Positions 2,295 through 14,342 of a stretch of 14,415 bases of DNA are shown here, piece by piece (position 1 is the stretch's first letter; each line of letters starts with the position of its first letter). Source of the stretch: a virus; the UHGV virus genome UHGV-0068976; one strand, written 5' to 3'. The notes below the pieces were generated by a model, which was not told the origin of the DNA, ran no database searches, and worked only from the letters and a program-made list of their open reading frames with translations. The translations under genes and the position numbers were made by a program.

Positions 2295-3017
2295 TTATAG
2301 CTCCTTTAATCGAGGCGGTTCTGGTAGAGGCATCCAGTGGGTTACACCGCCAATTGGCTCATCGTCGTCGTACTCCAATGCGGCTATATAGAACCCGTCA
2401 CGACGAGAATAAGAAATCCCGGACATTACAATGCCATCCGAAACAACAATAATGTCACCCGTTTCTTTCGGCATTCGCTCACTACAGCTTATCCAACCAT
2501 CCGGAGTTACCGGAGAGTTGCCATTTACATCGAAGTTTGGCTCTGCGTCCTGAACCAGGAGGATGTAACCATTCTTGGCAGTATCAAGTTCCGACGCCTC
2601 GGTGACGGTGCCGAAATAGCGATTACCTAAATCAGCATCACAAGTACTTACATCAATGGAAACTTCCATGCCTTCGATTAATTCTGGCAAGTTGTAAGCT
2701 TGGCTTACAGGTTCGGCTTCCAGTTCTGCAATGCGCTTTTTTGCTGCTTCCAGTTCATCCAGTAATTCCAGCACGGTAGCTGGATTGGCTGCGGCGATGA
2801 ATTCAGCATTGGCCTGCTGTTCCATTTGGAAATCTTCATCGAAGCCGCTTTCTGGATGCGCTCCTTCAATTCTGCAAATGGGAATATATCCAGCAATTTC
2901 ACGATGAATTAGCGCATCATCACAATCAAATCGGCTCTCTCCATATTCGAGCGACCACACCCCACACGTTGCTTTTTCTGCCTTAGCACGCAGTGCCTGA
3001 TAGTCAATTTCGCTCAC
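2295..3017 (-). CDS. Ea22-like protein with C-terminal DUF551-like domain
   Basis: Long ORF. Most plausible start is GTG at 3015-3017, 6 nt after a consensus SD (AAGGAGG), giving [16 protein letters not shown]. Central coiled-coil-like [20 protein letters not shown]-terminal [11 protein letters not shown]...[10 protein letters not shown] resembles DUF551 as recalled. The ORF track's upstream GTG at 3038 is the alternative start. Confidence 0.75.
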
Positions 3018-3199
3018 TGTTTGCCTCCTTTGCGCCACATCGCATTCAGATATTTGTTTTGATTCACTGATGGAAAAGAATTTCTCTTAAGCAATTCCTC
3101 TCTCGATGGCATTGGCTTTACGCGTTGGCGAATAATCATTTCTGCCGGAAGAATGCCGGGATTGTATGCAAGTCCTCTCATGGTAAATTCCTCAGTCAT
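3014..3199 (-). CDS. Hypothetical small protein (61 aa)
   Basis: ATG at 3197-3199 overlaps the stop of the upstream 97-aa gene; its own stop overlaps the GTG start of the Ea22-like gene (GTGA). The chain of couplings is the main support; no recognised motif. Confidence 0.4.
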
Positions 3200-3485
3200 T
3201 ACTGATAGCGCCATAGCGTGATCGATAATTACGCAGGCGCGGGTCAATTTCAGGGAAGTGGGTATATGTGGCTTTGCGGAACGGTCGGATTGATGTCTGG
3301 TAAATTCGCTCGCGTTCTTCTTTCTCTGCAAGCCATATACAATGACGAAATTCCTTTTCCTCTTTCGTTTCCTGCGGTAGCGACATTATCAGGTCATAGT
3401 TTTTTCTGAATTTATCCAGCACCTCCGATACGGAATTGCCGGAACAGCGGCGCGGGTCATCCGCACCATACATAGGCGCTGGCAT
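3192..3485 (-). CDS. Hypothetical protein (97 aa)
   Basis: ORF with ATG at 3483-3485 preceded by SD AGGAGA at about 5 nt. Located directly downstream of the exonuclease gene in the same operon. No motif recognised. Confidence 0.6.
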
Positions 3486-3501
3486 GTTTTTCTCCTGTTG
3501 A

Positions 3502-4050
3502 TTATTTAGCTAATTTTTTCCAGATTGCTGAAACGTATTTGGCTTGGTGGATGGCATCATCAAGCGCGTTGTGGCGAGTTCCTTTGAATGGCATATCTCG
3601 CTTAGGGTCGAATCCTATTACCTTTCCAAGCTCGACGATTGTTCTTACGTCGCGGTCATTCCACCACTGCCACGGAACTGGCCACCCTGTCAGCGAATAA
3701 CTGTTTCGGAGAATAACGCAGTCAAATGATGCTCCATTCCCCCAAACCTGAACGAATTTGTGGTTAGCGTTCTTTATGATGAATTCAGATAACCATGAAA
3801 GAGCCGTTGAAAGCTCCTGAGCGTTGCTGGTTAGCGATTTTCTGGCTTCTTCACTCTGTTCCAGCCACCATAAAATCGTTGAAGCGTCAGGACGCGCCCG
3901 ATATCGCATTGATGACTCAAGCGAGATATTTACCGAGAACTCTTCTCCTGTTTCTCCGGTATTCGGGTCAAAGAATACCGCCCCAATAGAAATAACTGGC
4001 GCGTATGGCCCGTTGCCCATTGTTTCAAGGTCAACCATCAAGTGATTCAT
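3502..4050 (-). CDS. DnaQ-like (DEDDh) 3'-5' exonuclease
   Basis: 182-aa ORF. Exo I-type motif MVDLETMG near the N-terminus and H-x4-D Exo III-type motif (HNALDDAIH) near the C-terminus. Start ATG 8 nt after the ssb stop with AAGGA in between. Confidence 0.8.
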   Translation of the reverse strand: MNHLMVDLETMGNGPYAPVISIGAVFFDPNTGETGEEFSVNISLESSMRYRARPDASTILWWLEQSEEARKSLTSNAQELSTALSWLSEFIIKNANHKFVQVWGNGASFDCVILRNSYSLTGWPVPWQWWNDRDVRTIVELGKVIGFDPKRDMPFKGTRHNALDDAIHQAKYVSAIWKKLAK

Positions 4051-4058
4051 GTAAGTCC

Positions 4059-4565
4059 TTAAATTGCGTGAATAGCGTGACGAGGGAAGGGGAGAGTTAC
4101 TGGTGCAAAGGGTATATCGTCGTCAAAATCCATCGGAGGTTCGTTGTGTTGTGCTGGTGATGATTGCTGCTGTGGCTTCTGTGATTGCCTGCTGGCTGCT
4201 TGTTGTTTGCTGTCGCCAATGCCGCCAAGCATCTGCATCACGCCATTAATTCCGACATGAACCTCGGTTGTGTAACGGTCTTGCCCTGACTGGTCTTTCC
4301 ACTTTCTGGTTCTCAGCATTCCCTCGAAATAAATCTGATCACCTTTTTTCACATACTGCCCCACGACCTCAGCCAGTTTCCCGGATACAGCAACACGATG
4401 CCATTCAGTCAATTCCTTTTGCTCGCCAGTATTTTTATCTCGCCATTGTTCTGACGTGGCTATTGTCAGGTTAGCGAACGCTGTTCCTGATGGTGAGTAT
4501 CGAACTTCCGGGTCTTGTCCTACCCGACCAAGGATAATCACCTTATTTACGCCTCTGCTTGCCAT
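4059..4565 (-). CDS. ssb: Single-stranded DNA-binding protein (SSB) with extended C-terminus
   Basis: N-terminal OB-fold region is a close match to bacterial SSB as recalled ([44 protein letters not shown]...), followed by a Q/P/S-rich linker and the acidic tip MDFDDDIPF. The frame continues 15 more codons ([15 protein letters not shown]) to TAA at 4059-4061. ATG at 4563-4565 directly abuts the upstream gene's TAA. Confidence 0.92.
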
Positions 4566-5273
4566 TTATGCCGCCTGTTTTAGTTCGTTAACTCTGATGT
4601 TCATTATCTGAACGCATTTAGCCTGCGCCTCCTCGTTGCCAGCCATTAATTGCCAGTCACGCTGATAACGCTCGATGAGTTTTTTCTTGTCAGTTTCTGT
4701 TGACGCATAATCGCTGAAGTCTTTCAGGATTTGTTCGCAGTCAACCGATGGAGATTTCTGGTTGGTATTTTCTGGTGATGGTTTGTTATCTGATGCTGGG
4801 ATTGCCCATCCCGGAAGCGATGGAGGGAGCCAGTAAAATCCTGTTCCATCCTTCAGTTTTGCCCTGTGCCACCCCTGCTTTTTATCGAGAGATGTTTGTG
4901 CGAAACCTTCCTCAAGGTTATACAGATACCGACCGATTCCCCACTGAACGGCAGCGCGCTTCATTGCACCGGAACGACCACCTTTGACGGCTTCTACCTG
5001 CGTGTTTTCAGCAGCATCCCATTTGGTTACCCATTCGGAATCAATCTTTATTGATATGCCGCATTCAACGCCGCCGTTGTTGGGAATATCGCGGTATTCA
5101 TTGCGCCATCCTGCTTTGCCGCAAACATCGTCCAGGCGTTTCATGATTGCCCGGTTCGTGACATAAGCCAGCACCATAGCCCACACCTTGCCATCGCGTG
5201 TTTTACCGCTTTGCTGTATTCGCCATTCGATATCTTCAGGGCTGAATGGCTCATCGAATTTGTTCAAATCCAT
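4566..5273 (-). CDS. Single-strand annealing protein, Rad52/Erf-like recombinase
   Basis: 235-aa ORF immediately upstream of ssb and the exonuclease (TAA-ATG junction). N-terminal region (GKVWAMVLAYVTNRAIMKRLDDVCGKAGWRNEY) resembles Rad52/Sak-type annealing proteins as recalled; C-terminal tail (ETDKKKLIERYQRDWQLMAGNEEAQAKCVQIMNIRVNELKQAA) resembles the C-terminus of P22 Erf as recalled. SD GAGGTGA precedes the start. Confidence 0.75.
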   Translation of the reverse strand: MDLNKFDEPFSPEDIEWRIQQSGKTRDGKVWAMVLAYVTNRAIMKRLDDVCGKAGWRNEYRDIPNNGGVECGISIKIDSEWVTKWDAAENTQVEAVKGGRSGAMKRAAVQWGIGRYLYNLEEGFAQTSLDKKQGWHRAKLKDGTGFYWLPPSLPGWAIPASDNKPSPENTNQKSPSVDCEQILKDFSDYASTETDKKKLIERYQRDWQLMAGNEEAQAKCVQIMNIRVNELKQAA

Positions 5274-5281
5274 AATTCACC

Positions 5282-5452
5282 TCAGAATGGACAATGCCCA
5301 AGGAAATAACGCTGATTTAATACTTCGACTCGGGACAAATTAAGGCATACCCGCATTCCTTCGCGGTCACCATTATGGCGATACCAGAGAGCTTTCTGCG
5401 TGTACATGCGTCTCTGTAACTTGCTCTCCTTCACTGTGGTTGCAAGTGACAT
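5282..5452 (-). CDS. Hypothetical small protein (56 aa), kil-position ORF
   Basis: Hand-translated ORF (MSLATTVKESKLQRRMYTQKALWYRHNGDREGMRVCLNLSRVEVLNQRYFLGHCPF) with SD GGAGAT upstream. Overlaps the 5373..5531 ORF in another frame, so only one of the two may be real. Confidence 0.3.
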   Translation of the reverse strand: MSLATTVKESKLQRRMYTQKALWYRHNGDREGMRVCLNLSRVEVLNQRYFLGHCPF

Positions 5453-5531
5453 GAATATCTCCTTCGTTACCGATTAATTCTTTCATCTGACGAATGAATT
5501 CTTCGTCTGACCAGTTATCTGTAAAACTCAT
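5373..5531 (-). CDS. Hypothetical small acidic protein (52 aa), kil-position ORF
   Basis: Hand-translated ORF (MSFTDNWSDEEFIRQMKELIGNEGDIHVTCNHSEGEQVTETHVHAESSLVSP). Its ATG overlaps the stop of the upstream 50-aa ORF as ATGA. Overlaps 5282..5452 in another frame. Confidence 0.3.
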   Translation of the reverse strand: MSFTDNWSDEEFIRQMKELIGNEGDIHVTCNHSEGEQVTETHVHAESSLVSP

Positions 5532-5680
5532 TTCCTGCGATACCACGGAAGGTTGATAGCTGATTTCATCGCTTTATTTGCTTCAAGCCACATTTTTGAA
5601 TCACCAATAAATCTGGCTATTACTGCTTTGTTTTGTGCCGCACGAAGCATCTGGTGATTGATGGCTATTTCATTGCGCAT
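5528..5680 (-). CDS. Hypothetical small protein (50 aa)
   Basis: Hand-translated ORF (MRNEIAINHQMLRAAQNKAVIARFIGDSKMWLEANKAMKSAINLPWYRRK). ATG at 5678-5680 preceded by GGAGG; stop overlaps the next ATG (ATGA). Confidence 0.4.
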   Translation of the reverse strand: MRNEIAINHQMLRAAQNKAVIARFIGDSKMWLEANKAMKSAINLPWYRRK

Positions 5681-5799
5681 AACGCCTCCAGTTGTTTCTT
5701 TGCTGCTCTGATTAATTGTTTAACTCGGCGTGATAATTCAGATTCGTGCGGGTAGAAAGCGGACATGACGCCGCTACCCGCGAGCTGAAAGTGCATCAT
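5665..5799 (-). CDS. cIII: cIII-like small protein (candidate FtsH-inhibitor / CII stabiliser)
   Basis: 44-aa product MMHFQLAGSGVMSAFYPHESELSRRVKQLIRAAKKQLEALCAMK. N-terminal pattern and the following basic amphipathic segment resemble lambda CIII as recalled. SD AGGAG 6 nt upstream of tandem ATGs at 5794-5799. Position between the N operon and the recombination genes matches lambda. Confidence 0.5.
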   Translation of the reverse strand: MMHFQLAGSGVMSAFYPHESELSRRVKQLIRAAKKQLEALCAMK

Positions 5800-5864
5800 G
5801 GGTAACTCCTTATATTTGATTGCATAACGAAAACGCCTCGAGTGAAGCGTTATTGGTATGCATA

Positions 5865-5888
5865 TAAAAAAGCCCTCACACTGGAGGG
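5865..5888 (-). terminator. Intrinsic terminator-like hairpin (tL-type) between the N-proximal genes and cIII
   Basis: Minus-strand RNA: GCCCUC-CAGUGU-GAGGGC followed by UUUUUU (plus-strand A-run 5865-5870). A perfect 6-bp GC-rich stem with a U-tract. Confidence 0.55.
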
Positions 5889-6017
5889 CAAAGAAGATTT
5901 CCAATAATCAGAACAAGTCGGCTCCTGTTTAGTTACGAGCGACATTGCTCCGTGTATTCACTCGTTGGAATGAATACACAGTGCAGTGTTTATTCTGTTG
6001 CTTATTCCAAAGCAAAT

Positions 6018-6260
6018 TTAACCATCAACAAACTCTTCTGGTAATTTATCAACCAGTTGATGACTTATTATCAGCCATTTGCCATCCTTCGTTTCGTATG
6101 CATATTTCTGGTCTTTTATCATCATGTGTTCGGCTACTGCCCTAACTGCCTGATCGGTGACATCTTCTCTCTTTCCTACCCACATTCCTTTTTCAGTGTT
6201 TAATGTTCCTTGAAAAATACGACCGCTTAATGGGCTTGCGCCCATAGTTTTTACTCTCAT
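6018..6260 (-). CDS. Hypothetical protein (80 aa)
   Basis: ORF in the N-cIII interval; ATG at 6258-6260. No recognised motif. Confidence 0.5.
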   Translation of the reverse strand: MRVKTMGASPLSGRIFQGTLNTEKGMWVGKREDVTDQAVRAVAEHMMIKDQKYAYETKDGKWLIISHQLVDKLPEEFVDG

Positions 6261-6552: not shown

Positions 6553-6825
6553 TTACCTCGCTGTCAGTTGTTTTGATTTCCGGTATCCTGCCGCGTAAAG
6601 AGCTACGTTTGGCAGGCAAATACTTCCACTGCGTTCATCTTCTTCCTTACAGCGAAGGCTTCCGAGTGATGCTGCTTTATCTGCTCTGACGCAACCAGAG
6701 AGCTTTAGCGCAATTTTTCGCGCCAGTGCTTCATTACTGCGTCGCTCGGCAATAAGTTCTGCTCTGCGAGCTTTGTAGCGGCTTTTTGCCGTACCTTTGG
6801 ATTCTTTCCAGACAATGGTTACCAT
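6553..6825 (-). CDS. N: N-like transcription antitermination protein (P22 gp24-like)
   Basis: 90-aa product from ATG at 6823-6825 with SD AAGGAGA. N-terminal arginine-rich motif (GTAKSRYKARRAELIAERR) and C-terminal LPNVALYAAGYRKSKQLTAR, which closely resembles the C-terminus of the P22 N-like protein as recalled. Lies directly downstream of a boxA/boxB nut site and the pL/OL region. Confidence 0.8.
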   Translation of the reverse strand: MVTIVWKESKGTAKSRYKARRAELIAERRSNEALARKIALKLSGCVRADKAASLGSLRCKEEDERSGSICLPNVALYAAGYRKSKQLTAR

Positions 6826-6935
6826 GATGGTCTCCTTTAAGTGGCTTTGGCGCATGACGCGTCGAGGTGCTTATCTTCTCGATCGCTGTCTTGCAGCTGC
6901 AATTCGCGCCATCCCCAAAACCACTCAAGTTCTGG

Positions 6936-7334: not shown

Positions 7335-8267
7335 TTAAAGAACCGATTTAACAAGATGGTTTTTACGGTACAGACCTATGCGATCATTGTGAATCTCAGT
7401 AGTCTCCACTAAAAGAGAAACAATCTGTCCGACCTTGTGTTTTTTTTGTATTAAATCTAGCATTTCAATCGGATAGGAAGCCTTTAAATGTTCACCACCA
7501 ACATCAAGCTCCAGCTTCCCATATTTGGATAGAACGACCAGTTCGCCTGTAACCGTTTCAGTAATGGGAGGGGATGAAATGGTTGATGTAAGTCTACTCA
7601 CCAAGTACTTAATTTTATTGGAGTCAATAGTTGCCACCTTGGTGCCATTACTAAATGGACCGGTCCAACTTGCATCAAATGTTAAGTTGTGTTTATCGCA
7701 TTCCTCTACGATTCTCTTAAGGCTTACAGTGGAATTGTATCCAATTTCAGCGACGTGATTCATGAAGTTGTTGTCGTCATCGCTTAACAACAAATCGAAT
7801 ATGCCTTTTACAGCCTTGCTGGGTACTGTTTCTACTAATTCTGCTATTCCTGTAGAGAAGGTGACGCCCAATTTTGTAGACCCAGGGGATAAATCAGCCA
7901 GCCTGAGGTTTAAGGAGCTTTTCACGTCGTAGGGAACTTTTTTTGAGTCCTTGCCTGAGGCAATTTTGTGTGTTGCTCTTTGTATTAGCGCTGCAAGATT
8001 TGTTGAAATAGCCCCAAGCAGCTCTAAAGGAATAGAGCCAAAGTCAACCTCAGAGCCTTTCAGCCGCAGCTCAAAAAAATCGATAAGTGGGTGCCGACTA
8101 TCTTGCTTTAATTTTTCGGCCTTCAAATCGCTCAGATGAGAATCCATGGAGCGATAAAGAAGCATGTCAGCAAAGGACCTGGTTTTGTTTTGCTTCATTG
8201 CATCGACTTCTTTTTGAATGAAATCAATGCGTTTATCGCAATTTTTAAACATTGATTTATCATTCAT
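7335..8267 (-). CDS. Hypothetical 310-aa protein, second gene of the accessory cassette in the cI-pL interval
   Basis: Long ORF in AT-rich DNA. ATG at 8265-8267 overlaps the upstream gene's TGA (ATGA coupling) with SD GAGGA 7 nt upstream. No recognisable catalytic motif by eye. Followed by a strong terminator. Confidence 0.8.
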   Translation of the reverse strand: MNDKSMFKNCDKRIDFIQKEVDAMKQNKTRSFADMLLYRSMDSHLSDLKAEKLKQDSRHPLIDFFELRLKGSEVDFGSIPLELLGAISTNLAALIQRATHKIASGKDSKKVPYDVKSSLNLRLADLSPGSTKLGVTFSTGIAELVETVPSKAVKGIFDLLLSDDDNNFMNHVAEIGYNSTVSLKRIVEECDKHNLTFDASWTGPFSNGTKVATIDSNKIKYLVSRLTSTISSPPITETVTGELVVLSKYGKLELDVGGEHLKASYPIEMLDLIQKKHKVGQIVSLLVETTEIHNDRIGLYRKNHLVKSVL

Positions 8268-8743
8268 AAAAAAATCCTCACTAACCCTTTCGGGTTTTCA
8301 CTGCGATCAAAACCAAACCAACCGCGCCAGTAGCTACGCCAGTACTCATAATCATAGTTAGGGTCATCTAAATTCTTCATGAGTAGTAGGACATCAATTT
8401 TGTAGTTTTGTTTGATGTAGTTTCGGTCAAGCAAATTATCGACGCGGCCCCGAAGCATGACAGGTATTGAGTTTATATTGCTATAGTCACATACCAACAA
8501 AATATCAATATCATCAGGCTCTGGTTTAGACGTGGTGTATGAACCATCAACCCATATTTCTGTAAAACAGCCATATTGAGCAGATAATTCTCGAATAGAT
8601 TCGAGTAGCTGTATAAAATTACAGTATAGCATGCCTCGCCTGGATGATGAAGGAAAGCAATCGACACAATACGATTTTAATCCAGCTTCATCCATGTCAT
8701 GGAACCCTGGCTCAAACAGGGGTGGGTAATTAATTTTATCCAT
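8264..8743 (-). CDS. Minimal nucleotidyltransferase-fold protein (Pol-beta superfamily-like), first gene of the accessory cassette
   Basis: 159-aa ORF with AAGG SD. Contains GS-x9-D-x-D (VDGSYTTSKPEPDDIDILLV), the signature arrangement of Pol-beta-type/minimal nucleotidyltransferases, with a further acidic residue on a hydrophobic stretch (KIDVLLLM). AT-rich codon usage. Confidence 0.8.
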   Translation of the reverse strand: MDKINYPPLFEPGFHDMDEAGLKSYCVDCFPSSSRRGMLYCNFIQLLESIRELSAQYGCFTEIWVDGSYTTSKPEPDDIDILLVCDYSNINSIPVMLRGRVDNLLDRNYIKQNYKIDVLLLMKNLDDPNYDYEYWRSYWRGWFGFDRSENPKGLVRIFL

Positions 8744-8891: not shown

Positions 8892-9539
8892 TCACCCAAA
8901 CGTCTCTTCAGGCCACTGCGCCTTAACTACCTTGCCTATGATGCGGCAGCTATGGTCGCAATCCAGGGTTCTATATGCCGGGTTTAAAGGTACCAGGTAA
9001 CTAACCCCTGCATCCTTCTCATACTTCTTGAACGTTGCCTCTGAATCACCATTTGCAGAAGCCACGCAGAAATCCCCAGACTCTACCGGCTCAGCCGGAT
9101 CAACGAGTATCAGCATGCCTTCCGGAAAACTTGGACGAACCCCCTGAGGCGCCGTCATTGAATGCCCCTTCACCTCAAGCCAGAAAGCTTTTTCGCTGGC
9201 TTTTGTGGTCGTTGGGACCCATGCCTTTGCATCGCTGGCTGTGTAGCTTCCCACCTCCGAAAATGGCCCGGCCTGCACTGAAGAAAATAACGGGTATTCA
9301 TATTGGCGAAATACGGCGTCTGAATCCTCGCCAAACATTATTTTTGCCGGAGATACGCCGAGTGCCGCCCCAAGAACCAGCGCGTCATCCGCGCTAACCT
9401 TTCTTGTTCCTAACTCGTAGTTCCCCAGGCGTGAAGGCGCAGCCCAGCCGCAAAGCTTGGCCAATTGAGCCTGGCTAAGTCCTTTAGCTTCTCTAAGGGA
9501 CTTGATCCTTTCCCCGATAATTTCATGCATCGTTTTCAT
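8892..9539 (-). CDS. cI: CI-like phage repressor (N-terminal HTH, C-terminal LexA/S24-type autopeptidase)
   Basis: 215-aa ORF divergent from a cro-like gene across an operator-bearing intergenic region. N-terminal HTH segment ([24 protein letters not shown]), candidate Ala-Gly cleavage site (VQAGP), and serine/lysine dyad motifs (GHSM; FKKY) typical of S24 self-cleaving repressors. Confidence 0.9.
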
Positions 9540-13329: not shown

Positions 13330-13360
13330 AGGCCTGCTGGTAATCGCAGGCCTTTTTATT
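13330..13360 (+). terminator. Intrinsic terminator (tR2-position) between the replication genes and ninB
   Basis: Plus strand: AGGCCTGC-tggtaatc-GCAGGCCT (8-bp perfect stem) followed by TTTTTATTT. In lambda, tR2 sits at the equivalent place upstream of the nin genes. Confidence 0.6.
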
Positions 13361-13377
13361 TGGGGGAGAGGGAAGTC

Positions 13378-13818
13378 ATGAAAAAACTAACCTTTGAAAT
13401 TCGATCTCCAGCACATCAGCAAAACGCTATTCACGCAGTACAGCAAATCCTTCCAGACCCAACCAAACCAATCGTAGTAACCATTCAGGAACGCAACCGC
13501 AGCTTAGACCAAAACAGGAAGCTATGGGCCTGCTTAGGTGACGTCTCTCGTCAGGTTGAATGGCATGGTCGCTGGCTGGATGCAGAAAGCTGGAAGTGTG
13601 TGTTTACCGCAGCATTAAAGCAGCAGGATGTTGTTCCTAACCTTGCCGGGAATGGCTTTGTGGTAATAGGCCAGTCAACCAGCAGGATGCGTGTAGGCGA
13701 ATTTGCGGAGCTATTAGAGCTTATACAGGCATTCGGTACAGAGCGTGGCGTTAAGTGGTCAGACGAAGCGAGACTGGCTCTGGAGTGGAAAGCGAGATGG
13801 GGAGATCGGGCTGCATGA
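13378..13818 (+). CDS. ninB: NinB (Orf-family recombination mediator)
   Basis: 146-aa product from ATG at 13378-13380 (MKKLTFEIRSPAHQQNAIHAVQQILPDPTKPIVVTIQERNRSLDQNRKLWACLGDV...), which I recognise as essentially the lambda NinB sequence. Not verified by search. Confidence 0.9.
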   Translation: MKKLTFEIRSPAHQQNAIHAVQQILPDPTKPIVVTIQERNRSLDQNRKLWACLGDVSRQVEWHGRWLDAESWKCVFTAALKQQDVVPNLAGNGFVVIGQSTSRMRVGEFAELLELIQAFGTERGVKWSDEARLALEWKARWGDRAA

Positions 13819-14342
13819 CTATCAAATCAAATACGCCAGCACACGACAAGGACTGCTGGCAAACGCCGCTTTGGCTTTTTGATGCACTGGATATTGAGTT
13901 TGGATTCTGGCTGGATTCGGCAGCGAGCGACAAAAATGCTCTGTGTGCTCACTGGCTAACTGAGGCCGACGACGCGCTCAATTCTGAGTGGGTAAGCCAC
14001 GGTGCAATCTGGAATAACCCACCGTACAGCAATATCAGGCCGTGGGTGGAAAAAGCCGCTGAGCAGTGCATACAACAGCGACAGACGGTAGTTATGCTTG
14101 TGCCAGAGGATATGTCAGTCGGATGGTTCAGCAAGGCTCTGGAGAGTGTCGACGAAGTTCGCATTATCACTGATGGACGGATTAATTTTATCGAACCATC
14201 GACAGGGTTGGAGAAGAAGGGAAACAGCAAAGGCTCCATGCTGCTGATTTGGCGACCGTTCATCAGTCCTCGACGGATGTTTACTACCGTATCCAAAGCG
14301 GCATTGATGGCGATCGGGCAGGGCGTCAGGAGGGCGGCATGA
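13815..14342 (+). CDS. Phage DNA N6-adenine methyltransferase (Dam-type)
   Basis: 175-aa product from ATG at 13815-13817, overlapping the ninB stop (ATGA). Conserved [13 protein letters not shown] near the N-terminus and the amino-methyltransferase catalytic motif NPPY (IWNNPPYSN). Confidence 0.85.

Follow-up and report, generated by a model that had tools for sequence, protein, structure and literature searches.

Organization of the recombination module

Analysis of the 14,415-nt window (the whole stretch of the virus genome UHGV-0068976 that was studied here) led to a contiguous block of Rec genes at 3192-5273, located between kil/cIII/N and Ead-xis-int. We identify this block as the recombination (Rec) module in the early-left (pL) operon of a lambdoid prophage. 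Along the minus strand it reads 56-aa ORF, annealing protein, single-stranded DNA-binding protein (SSB), DexA-like exonuclease and Abc2, with the following features:

5282..5452, minus strand: 56-aa ORF at the position of P22 arf, matching phrog_1723 'recombinase' (E-value = 4.8e-35)
4566-5273, minus strand: annealing protein, whole ORF, 235 aa
4866..5273, minus strand: Rad52/Rad22-type core of the annealing protein, residues 1-136 (PF04098, E-value = 5e-26)
4569..4805, minus strand: Erf-type tail of the annealing protein, residues 157-235, aligned to P22 Erf
4059..4565, minus strand: SSB with OB fold, 168 aa (PF00436, E-value = 1.6e-36; TIGR00621, E-value = 4.5e-49)
4062..4106, minus strand: 15-codon extension of the SSB past the canonical ...DDDIPF tip, 45 nt derived from an HNH endonuclease gene
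3502..4050, minus strand: predicted DexA-family DEDDh 3'-5' exonuclease, 182 aa (PF16473, E-value = 5.7e-73)
3192..3485, minus strand: abc2, anti-RecBCD protein 2, a RecBCD hijacker (PF11043, E-value = 1.4e-64)

The original prediction, made from the sequence alone, described three tightly coupled genes for an annealing protein, an SSB and a DnaQ-like exonuclease. Homology search confirmed all three identities (PF04098, PF00436 and PF16473) at exactly the predicted coordinates on the minus strand, and the coupling is as it was described. The TAA stop of the annealing protein gene directly abuts the ssb ATG, while 8 nt (GGACTTAC) lie between the ssb TAA and the exonuclease ATG, with a Shine-Dalgarno-like AAGGA overlapping the ssb stop. 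A further 16 nt separate the exonuclease stop from the start of abc2, which is preceded by an AGGAG ribosome-binding site. The abc2 gene lies outside the coordinates of the original prediction and was overlooked there, yet it is part of the module. At the other end, the 56-aa ORF is established 8 nt upstream of the annealing protein gene and some of the related loci retain it ahead of their Rad52-type gene; it was considered as a counterpart of P22 Arf and rejected, as there is no similarity between the two. An ORF at 3014-3331 overlapping abc2 is a spurious pick of the gene caller and was disregarded.

All four functions that define the 'anti-RecBCD + SSB + nuclease + SAP' type of Rec module (PMC12315714) are present here contiguously. 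No lambda Exo, Bet, Gam, RecT or RecE nuclease domain was found in the window or in 80 related loci, and tblastn with RecE matched only its non-nuclease region, in four fusion proteins of the related loci. A promoter scan of the minus strand from 3500 to 5490 gave no candidate site, and over the whole scan fewer sites were found than in shuffled sequence; an independent transcription unit was rejected on this basis. Given this lack of promoter-like sites and the Shine-Dalgarno sequence overlapping the ssb stop, the exonuclease would be co-expressed with the other Rec genes. The genes of the module are real, as judged by dN/dS against the orthologues of phage epsilon34 (0.13 for the exonuclease, 0.09 for ssb, 0.14 for the annealing protein and 0.07 for abc2) and, for the exonuclease, by the presence of its exact sequence in a 90%-identity cluster of 1,286 members.

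The DexA-like exonuclease

Residues 2-177 of the exonuclease cover profile positions 1-177 of the 177 of PF16473 (Rv2179c-like) with 244.8 bits against a cutoff of 27. NCBIfam had no match for the exonuclease, the annealing protein or Abc2. The two motifs that had first been read from the translation are indeed there, MVDLETMG at residues 5-12 and HNALDDAIH at residues 160-168, and the full DEDDh set is present, namely D7 and E9 (ExoI, D-x-E), D110 (ExoII) and H160 with D165 (ExoIII, H-x4-D). In 16 diverse homologues D7, D110, H160 and D165 are invariant and E9 is replaced in one. The AlphaFold2 model of the protein is confident (pLDDT 92.7, pTM 0.89). By sequence, the best PDB match is T4 DexA (8KEL, E-value = 1.8e-13), which is also the first Foldseek match of the model (TM 0.80, E-value = 7e-12) and is followed by REXO2, RNase T, Orn, Cap18 and RNase AS (TM 0.60 for the last). 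Since the DEDDh residues are complete, the model is confident and the closest folds (T4 DexA, then RNase T, Orn and REXO2) are all 3'-5' exonucleases, the 3'-5' polarity assumed in the original prediction can be soundly inferred from sequence and model.

Alignment with T4 DexA places W130 opposite W152, the residue proposed to recognize 5hmC. DexA D169 corresponds to F147, with D148 adjacent, and no Asp aligns with the tetramer residue D90 of DexA (a gap, or Ser/Ala). PADLOC returned a generic Cas-associated DEDDh match for the exonuclease (E-value = 1.4e-4); being both weak and generic, it was not accepted as an indication of a defence role.

The annealing protein and the SSB

The annealing protein was originally suspected of being a mosaic of a Rad52-like core and an Erf-like tail, and this architecture is now substantiated on both sides. 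Residues 4-136 match PF04098 with 91.9 bits against a cutoff of 20.3, while the last 79 residues (157-235) share 62% identity with residues 134-205 of P22 Erf (BLASTP, E-value = 3e-30). BLASTP aligned the tail only, with no similarity between the N-terminal core and the P22 Erf core, and PF04404 (ERF core) had no match in the annealing protein at E <= 0.01. The tail is also 50% identical to that of an ERF-family (PF04404) protein found at this position in one related locus (L037), and tblastn with the tail matches bona fide erf genes of P22-like phages. Concerning the Sak4-type proteins of related loci, BLASTP found nothing significant for an Erf-type tail, and the resemblance is one seen by eye only. 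No solved homologue of the annealing protein was detectable by sequence.

The SSB carries the acidic motif DFDDDIPF at residues 146-153, although not at its very end, because it continues for the 15 residues listed above. The 45 nt of this extension recur without change at the 3' end of an HNH endonuclease ORF in four related loci (L003, L004, L008 and L021), where that ORF sits between ssb and the exonuclease gene and the SSB ends right after IPF. It is a possibility that a tip masked in this way keeps host ExoI and other clients of the SSB tip off the phage ssDNA, with the phage exonuclease acting as a substitute.

Relation to known recombination systems

The same four genes in the same order are found in the Escherichia coli phages mEp235 and mEpX2 (96.9% nucleotide identity over 2.4 kb) and in the Salmonella phages epsilon34 and g341c (89.5%), so that only allelic differences separate the module from theirs. 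In some relatives, an additional HNH endonuclease gene separates ssb from the exonuclease gene. The modules of these four phages belong to the 'ES18 functional type' defined by Zheng et al. (2025, Genome Research, PMC12315714), who termed the presence of DnaQ-like nucleases in lambdoid Rec modules curious and regarded the tightly packed DnaQ gene of epsilon34 as 'very likely' a legitimate member of its Rec module. The module is thus known and common, its odd nuclease was already reported in 2025, and it is legitimate to ask what function a 3'-5' exonuclease has in a Rec slot, as has already been done in print (PMC12315714).

Phage P22 shares the operon position with its arf-erf-abc1-abc2 genes (kil, a small ORF, an annealing protein and, further on, abc2), but its annealing core is of the ERF type (PF04404) instead of the Rad52 type (PF04098), and it has abc1 where ssb and the exonuclease gene are located here. 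No match to Abc1 was found in the window. The annealing protein, the SSB with its 15-residue extension and Abc2 all have near-identical counterparts in HK75 and ECP1. Lambda Red (Exo-Bet-Gam) and Rac RecET likewise combine, in the early left region, an annealing protein, a nuclease and an anti-RecBCD function, but their nucleases are 5'-3' enzymes of the PD-(D/E)XK type, whereas the one studied here is predicted to be a 3'-5' DEDDh enzyme. Additionally, Gam blocks RecBCD outright, while Abc2 would, by analogy, reprogram it.

For the exonuclease itself, T4 DexA belongs to the same Pfam family, has the same DEDDh residues and represents the closest solved structure (8KEL/8KEN), although it is only about 25% identical and longer, with extra loops (227 aa compared to 182 aa). 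DexA is a phage 3'-5' DNA exonuclease taking part in recombinational double-strand-break repair (PMC2988022), which forms tetramers via S87/D90 and acts on 5hmC DNA (PMC12153337). Together with RNase H and 43Exo it affects the efficiency and the coconversion of intron homing, itself a recombination-dependent form of double-strand-break repair (PMC2988022, PMC12153337). The other of the two closest characterized relatives is the E. coli nuclease 'EcD' (HREX), also a PF16473 protein, of similar compact size, with an MNHLM(I/V)D.ET N-terminus and 39% identity over the full length. Its gene was located using the published primers of Kang et al.: the forward primer matches exactly in 26 E. coli genomes, inside a gene annotated as '3'-5' exonuclease', and the reverse primer matches the 3' end of the same gene with a one-base difference, so this gene should be EcD or a close allele of it. 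It belongs to a P2-like prophage, where it is found in the early operon and not in a Rec module, and at only 39% identity the exonuclease presented here is not EcD itself.

Distribution of the exonuclease gene

In HK75, 13 nt lie between the ssb TAA and the abc2 ATG; the flanking proteins are near-identical and the exonuclease ORF is exactly missing, and both HK75 and ECP1 have the annealing protein-SSB-Abc2 order with a clean indel of the size of the exonuclease gene. Among 5,426 complete E. coli genomes, the exonuclease is present in 152, the Rad52 core in 362 and abc2 in 1,046; the module as a whole is carried by 137-152 of these genomes and by several sequenced phages.

Related loci were divided into clade A, with 39 loci whose exonuclease is at least 69% identical, and a sister clade of 41 loci with 59-62% identity. 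The clade-A exonuclease is established within a Rec module in 39/39 loci, with a recognizable SSB gene immediately upstream in 37 of them and Abc2 downstream in 29 (a thirtieth match is borderline, 24.5 bits against a cutoff of 25); the downstream ORFs of the other loci gave no assignment. The upstream annealing protein is of the Rad52 type in 29 loci, Sak4/AAA_24 in four or five, and has an Erf core in three. The sister-clade genes (41 loci), in contrast, immediately precede xis/int and have neither an SSB nor an annealing protein nor Abc2 beside them, and the 39%-identical relative in the P2-like prophage early operon stands beside Dam and a replication endonuclease. These contexts indicate that the exonuclease family is not intrinsically tied to recombination genes.

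On comparative sequence evidence, the exonuclease is a precise, facultative and dispensable cassette. It is nevertheless maintained, to judge from its dN/dS of 0.13, which resembles that of its neighbours, from its placement in clade A and from its predicted co-expression. Taken jointly, the identity, the architecture and the optional nature of the gene are very probable in our view.

Probable source of the 5'-3' resection and possible role of the exonuclease

The original prediction presented the 3'-5' enzyme as standing in the module rather than a lambda-Exo-type nuclease, a framing that finds no support, given the adjacent abc2, the nuclease-free P22 and HK75 types and the HK75 indel. The encoded Abc2 shares 94% identity with its P22 counterpart and has a match in chain A of PDB 8B1T (E-value = 5e-59). 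Abc2 binds RecC and blocks activation at Chi (PMC12315714) and, according to the statement in PMC5928155 that cites Murphy 2000, turns RecBCD into a 5'-3' exonuclease that readies ends for recombination. P22-type (46 phages) and HK75-type (27 phages) Rec modules include an annealing protein and an anti-RecBCD protein, with no phage nuclease (PMC12315714, Table 1), showing that a phage-encoded 5'-3' exonuclease is not the norm. By analogy with P22, taking abc2 into account would remove most of the polarity paradox: once reprogrammed by Abc2, host RecBCD would supply the 5'-3' resection for the annealing protein, and the exonuclease would not be the resection nuclease. It would instead be an optional accessory enzyme trimming 3' ssDNA during lytic growth, either 3' tails or flaps of non-homologous sequence that persist once annealing has occurred or, alternatively, 3' overhangs that prevent RecBCD from entering or impede priming. 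T4 DexA and the E. coli exonucleases ExoI and ExoX have comparable roles in double-strand-break repair. To the explanation as a whole, a Rec module with Abc2-driven resection and an accessory 3'-5' exonuclease, we assign a probability of about 0.5; the 3'-end-trimming role in recombination, taken separately, is somewhat more doubtful. Several points stand against the explanation. The substrate (DNA or RNA), the polarity and the partners of the exonuclease are all predicted, circularization by annealing of terminal repeats should by our own reasoning proceed with no need for removal of 3' flaps, and both the sister clade and the P2-like relative stand apart from recombination genes. Moreover, 3'-5' ssDNA exonucleases generally lower recombination by destroying 3' tails, according to the passage of PMC12315714 that cites Lovett 2011, and EcD has been reported as an anti-T4 nuclease (PMC12153337).

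This last report leads to a different reading, in which the exonuclease is an HREX-like nuclease of inter-phage warfare or defence directed against modified (e.g., 5hmC) T-even DNA and its placement in the Rec module is accidental. Kang et al. (2025, PMC12153337) report that EcD has no activity on unmodified dsDNA but degrades the DNA of T4, and that its expression from a plasmid protects cells from this phage; the gene matched by its primers is the 39%-identical, full-length relative described above, W130 aligns with DexA W152 with no Asp at the D90 position, and the sister clade is located in an accessory region near int. We nonetheless hold this reading to be unlikely. Lacking its own promoter and following ssb at a distance of 8 nt within the repressed pL operon, the exonuclease gene would be expected to stay silent in lysogens. 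The EcD-like gene, too, is enclosed in an early operon, that of a P2-like prophage, and the evidence for EcD rests on plasmid expression. Furthermore, the position of DexA D169 is taken by the non-acidic F147 (although D148 is adjacent), PADLOC gave nothing beyond the weak generic DEDDh match, and the SSB-exonuclease-Abc2 order is kept through swaps of the annealing protein (SSB in 37 and Abc2 in 29-30 of the 39 clade-A loci). A general function in nucleic-acid turnover during lytic growth, with no specific role in recombination, would be compatible with the occurrence of the family in several unrelated phage contexts and with the host-DNA scavenging documented for DexA (PMC12153337). It could take the form of nucleotide salvage from ssDNA or oligonucleotides made by RecBCD or other nucleases, or of RNA 3'-end decay like that of RNase AS (Rv2179c), an exoribonuclease that gave the Pfam family its name and that belongs, with Orn, RNase T and REXO2, to the structural neighbours of the model. 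The exonuclease is, however, far closer to the DNase DexA (TM 0.80) than to RNase AS (TM 0.60), and the conserved site of clade A is specifically the one between ssb and abc2, which makes this reading distinctly unlikely. Degradation of host DNA for precursors is not known from temperate lambdoid phages.

The exonuclease might also act as a negative regulator or quality control of recombination while Abc2 disables RecBCD, shortening or removing 3' tails and so limiting RecA loading, SOS induction and aberrant events. This would fit its co-expression with Abc2 and the statement, in the part of PMC12315714 citing Lovett 2011, that 3'-5' exonucleases 'usually inhibit homologous recombination', but the proposal is purely inferential and leaves the absence of the exonuclease from most Abc2 modules unexplained; we regard it as very improbable. 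Finally, the implicit reading of the original prediction was that the exonuclease replaces lambda Exo as the resection nuclease, producing 5' tails for annealing with reversed polarity. It is true that this is the only nuclease gene of the module and that no lambda Exo or RecE nuclease is nearby. Against this, the module includes abc2, and P22 manages with no nuclease of its own (PMC5928155; PMC12315714). HK75, in addition, has the same annealing protein, SSB and Abc2 with no exonuclease. DexA-type DEDDh enzymes act on the 3' ends of ssDNA, with no processive dsDNA resection enzyme known among them. Replacement of lambda Exo is consequently hardly tenable.

Returning to the accessory 3'-5' exonuclease, a more ambitious version of this role can be drawn, although we find it rather doubtful: the DexA-like enzyme may be a true partner of Abc2-reprogrammed RecBCD and the phage SSB in a two-nuclease pathway. 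The host enzyme would resect 5'-3' and the phage enzyme would trim heterologous or over-long 3' tails, leaving ends onto which RecBCD can load or annealed 3' ends able to prime synthesis. Such a pathway would specifically promote 'relaxed' recombination between diverged mosaic phages and prophages. The experimental question that remains on the exonuclease is well-posed but modest. If the enzyme does take part in recombination, it would mean that RecBCD-hijacking annealing systems also need controlled processing of 3' ends and, if true, this might improve dsDNA recombineering toolkits composed of an annealing protein, SSB and Abc2.

Organization of the early region

The window covers the immunity and early region of a lambdoid prophage and, judging by homology, holds a P22-like recombination module containing Abc2. 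Minus-strand genes are listed leftward from cI, followed by those of the plus strand.

8892-9539, minus: cI
7335-8743, minus: two-gene insert between N and cI
6553-6855, minus: N
6018-6260, minus: DUF7446 gene
5665-5904, minus: cIII
5528-5680, minus: kil
5282-5452, minus: 56-aa ORF
4566-5273, minus: Rad52-family annealing protein
4059-4565, minus: SSB
3502-4050, minus: PF16473 DEDDh exonuclease
3192-3485, minus: Abc2
2295-3038, minus: Ead/Ea22-DUF551 protein
1899-2198, minus: ea8.5-like gene
1368-1643, minus: xis
27-1322, minus: int
Plus: cro, cII, O-like initiator, primase-helicase, NinB, Dam-type methylase

The two insert genes (7335-8267 and 8264-8743, minus) overlap, occupy the position of lambda rexAB and match both components of PDC-M63, a PADLOC candidate defence system (B, E-value = 7.5e-45; A, E-value = 1.8e-41); the smaller one is a DUF6932 protein. 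NinB (13360-13818, plus; PF05772, E-value = 2e-54) is a second recombination-associated function of the prophage. It is followed by the N6-adenine methylase (13755-14342, plus; PF05869), listed with a GTG start that overlaps ninB; its match to Pfam starts at residue 24, and therefore an ATG near 13815 is probably the true start. Where P22 has arf, 8 nt ahead of the annealing-protein gene, the window has the 56-aa ORF. Its family, phrog_1723, bears the label 'recombinase', but the ORF shares no similarity with P22 Arf, and other small ORFs fill this slot in related loci.

The recombination module

As originally predicted, the genes of the annealing protein, SSB and exonuclease are tightly coupled. 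The TAA stop of the annealing-protein gene directly adjoins the ATG of ssb, while the ssb TAA is separated by 8 nt from the exonuclease ATG, which is preceded by a Shine-Dalgarno sequence (AAGGA) overlapping the ssb stop. Promoter scanning of the minus strand between 3500 and 5490 detected no promoter-like sites, and the exonuclease gene is predicted to be co-transcribed with ssb and probably translationally coupled to it. All four module genes are under purifying selection, with dN/dS values against epsilon34 of 0.13 for the exonuclease, 0.09 for SSB, 0.14 for the annealing protein and 0.07 for Abc2.

The exonuclease can be assigned by homology to the DexA family of DEDDh enzymes. It carries both of the motifs previously noted (MVDLETMG and HNALDDAIH), and the five DEDDh residues are kept among 16 homologues (58-87% identity), except for E9, which is replaced in one. 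T4 DexA is the sole significant PDB match of the sequence (E-value = 1.8e-13) and also the nearest solved fold to the confident AF2 model (pLDDT 92.7; TM 0.80, E-value = 7e-12), with REXO2, RNase T, Orn, Cap18 and RNase AS as more distant fold neighbours.

The abc2 gene, overlooked in the original prediction, starts 16 bases downstream of the exonuclease. Its product is 94% identical to P22 Abc2, whose structure bound to RecBCD has been solved (PDB 8B1T). Abc2 is described as making RecBCD a 5'-3' exonuclease, which readies ends for recombination (PMC5928155, citing Murphy 2000). P22 possesses Erf and Abc2 and no nuclease of its own (Hutinet et al.), and lambdoid phages with an annealing protein, an anti-RecBCD protein and no nuclease include 46 of P22 type and 27 of HK75 type (Zheng et al., 2025, PMC12315714, Table 1). 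Therefore, the premise that the 3' tails lack a source is unfounded; homology suggests the reprogrammed host enzyme as their expected source.

The annealing protein is indeed a mosaic of a Rad52 core and an Erf tail. Its N-terminal 136 residues belong to Rad52/22 (PF04098), with no ERF (PF04404) signal, while residues 157-235 share 62% identity with the C-terminal domain of the bona fide P22 Erf (E-value = 3e-30). The same tail is 50% identical to that of an ERF-family protein found in the same slot of another phage. One C-terminal tail of ~60-80 residues is present on unrelated annealing cores: Rad52-type in the window (4569-4805, minus), and ERF-type in P22 erf (L083, 1575-2192) and in the related loci L037 (about 4360-4983) and L039 (4935-5540). 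Because P22 lacks both a phage SSB and the exonuclease, Abc2/RecBCD or a host factor is a more likely putative partner of the tail than phage SSB. A 33-nt piece of the Rad52-type gene (5094-5126) is a 100% match to a 'CRISPR'-annotated feature of E. coli JNE151685 (NZ_AP027258.1, 3118551-3118583), presumably a spacer that was taken up against phages of this family.

The SSB ends in ...DFDDDIPF plus 15 extra residues (4062-4106, minus), so that the canonical tip bound by host SSB partners is masked, as in HK75 and epsilon34. The 45 nt of this extension are identical to the end (3') of an HNH endonuclease ORF of 159 aa, which in four related loci (L003, L004, L008 and L021, about 5500-5992) separates the IPF codon precisely from this tail. 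When the HNH gene is present, SSB stops right after IPF (4/4 loci); when it is absent, SSB reads through into the HNH tail (30/32 loci). This SSB allele is widespread, belonging to an 880-member cluster.

Distribution of the exonuclease

The exonuclease gene is an optional cassette. Phages mEp235 and mEpX2 carry the full four-gene module (96.9% identity to the window), as do the Salmonella phages epsilon34 and g341c (89.5%), whereas in HK75 and ECP1 the annealing-protein, ssb and abc2 genes are near-identical and exactly the exonuclease ORF is missing. The HK75 junction reads ssb-TAA-TCAGGAGAAAAAC-ATG-abc2, compared with ssb-TAA-GGACTTAC-[exonuclease]-TAA-TCAACAGGAGAAAAAC-ATG-abc2 in the window. 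Sf6 and Huey have an HNH endonuclease in the slot, and some phages bear both. Among 5,426 complete E. coli genomes, abc2 occurs in 1,046, the Rad52-type core in 362, the exonuclease gene in 152 and the whole four-gene block in 137.

A profile-guided IMG/VR scan yielded 80 loci in two groups. Clade A (39 loci, 69-99% identical to the window exonuclease) is located in the recombination module in all cases, with a recognisable SSB gene directly upstream in 37/39 and Abc2 downstream in 29/39 (borderline in one more). The upstream annealing protein has a Rad52 core in 29, Sak4/AAA_24 in 4-5 and an ERF core in 3; the clade of the window gene is thus tied consistently to ssb and abc2 and not to one annealing protein. 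In lambdoid prophages, clade B (41 loci, L042-L082; 59-62% identical) is found immediately upstream of xis/int, and no SSB, annealing protein or Abc2 adjoins the gene in any of the 41. Among the genes nearby are those of a protein with a dATP/dGTP pyrophosphohydrolase domain, DUF2303 and RdgC; one locus (L051) has a separate P22-type module 3.3 kb upstream. In four others (L042, L044, L054 and L078), the PF16473 DEDDh domain forms the C-terminal end of a protein of 835-841 aa (e.g., L078, 4054-6561), which in its N-terminal and middle regions resembles RecE outside the nuclease part (PF06630, E-value = 2e-10; tblastn to Rac RecE, E-value down to 7e-8). These fusions, whose genes lie shortly before int and have no RecT in the vicinity, look like a RecE scaffold with a 3'-5' domain in place of the 5'-3' nuclease domain. 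Lambda Exo, Bet, Gam, RecT and the RecE nuclease domain were absent from all 80 loci.

The published forward primer for EcD, an E. coli DexA homologue, exactly matches a gene of 26/5,426 E. coli genomes, the reverse primer with a one-base difference. This gene (L086, 5989-6570, in E. coli S19-651, NZ_CP075852.1) is 39% identical to the window exonuclease. It is part of a P2-like prophage's early operon, in the order integrase, repressor-like HTH, ..., exonuclease, ParE-like, Dam, replication endonuclease, with small ORFs on one side of it and Dam and the replication endonuclease on the other. The description of this 'bacterial' anti-T4 exonuclease never mentions a prophage (Kang et al., 2025, PMC12153337). 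Overall, the family is an early-expressed accessory of temperate phages that turns up in several genomic settings.

Possible role of the exonuclease

RecBCD-Abc2 would make 3' tails, SSB would coat them and the Rad52/Erf-tail protein would anneal them, after which the exonuclease may remove unpaired 3' ssDNA. Its targets could be heterologous tails or flaps blocking priming or ligation, or long 3' overhangs keeping RecBCD out of an end. Thoms and Wackernagel (1998) and Dermic (2006) reportedly found that, once the RecBCD nuclease is attenuated, RecBC(D)-dependent recombination in E. coli requires ssDNA exonucleases. T4 DexA acts together with RNase H and 43Exo on intron homing, a double-strand-break repair that depends on recombination, and influences both its efficiency and its coconversion tracts (PMC2988022, PMC12153337). 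'Relaxed' recombination between diverged prophages is driven by Rad52-like phage recombinases (PMC3945230), and heterologous ends are to be expected there. Against end trimming, 3'-5' ssDNA exonucleases usually depress recombination, as also remarked by Zheng et al. (2025, PMC12315714), and the clade B and P2-like relatives are unlinked to recombination genes; we regard this role as tentative (probability about 0.4). Our confidence is much higher for the overall description, i.e., identity, architecture, optional accessory and resection by RecBCD-Abc2.

Alternatively, the enzyme could act as a brake on 3' tails. Other candidate functions are salvage of nucleotides or turnover of RNA. An anti-phage nuclease of the modification-dependent HREX class is suggested by EcD, which reportedly cleaves 5hmC DNA and protects against T4 if expressed from a plasmid (PMC12153337), but both the window gene and the EcD-like gene are located in prophage lytic operons without a promoter of their own, and the window exonuclease lacks one of the two residues proposed to recognise 5hmC. 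A true replacement of lambda Exo is the least likely reading because of abc2 and the HK75 arrangement.

All observed details of the original prediction hold, and its interpretation holds in part: the premise of a missing source of 3' tails fails given abc2. The feature is ordinary, and both object and puzzle were already known. The gene is present in sequenced phages and hundreds of genomes, and Zheng et al. (2025, PMC12315714) reported DnaQ-like nucleases in the recombination modules of lambdoid phages, found them curious and considered the tightly packed one of epsilon34 'very likely' a legitimate module member; sporadic DnaQ-type genes near int were remarked on as well. What a DexA-like 3'-5' exonuclease does beside SSB and Abc2 is nevertheless a well-posed and testable question.
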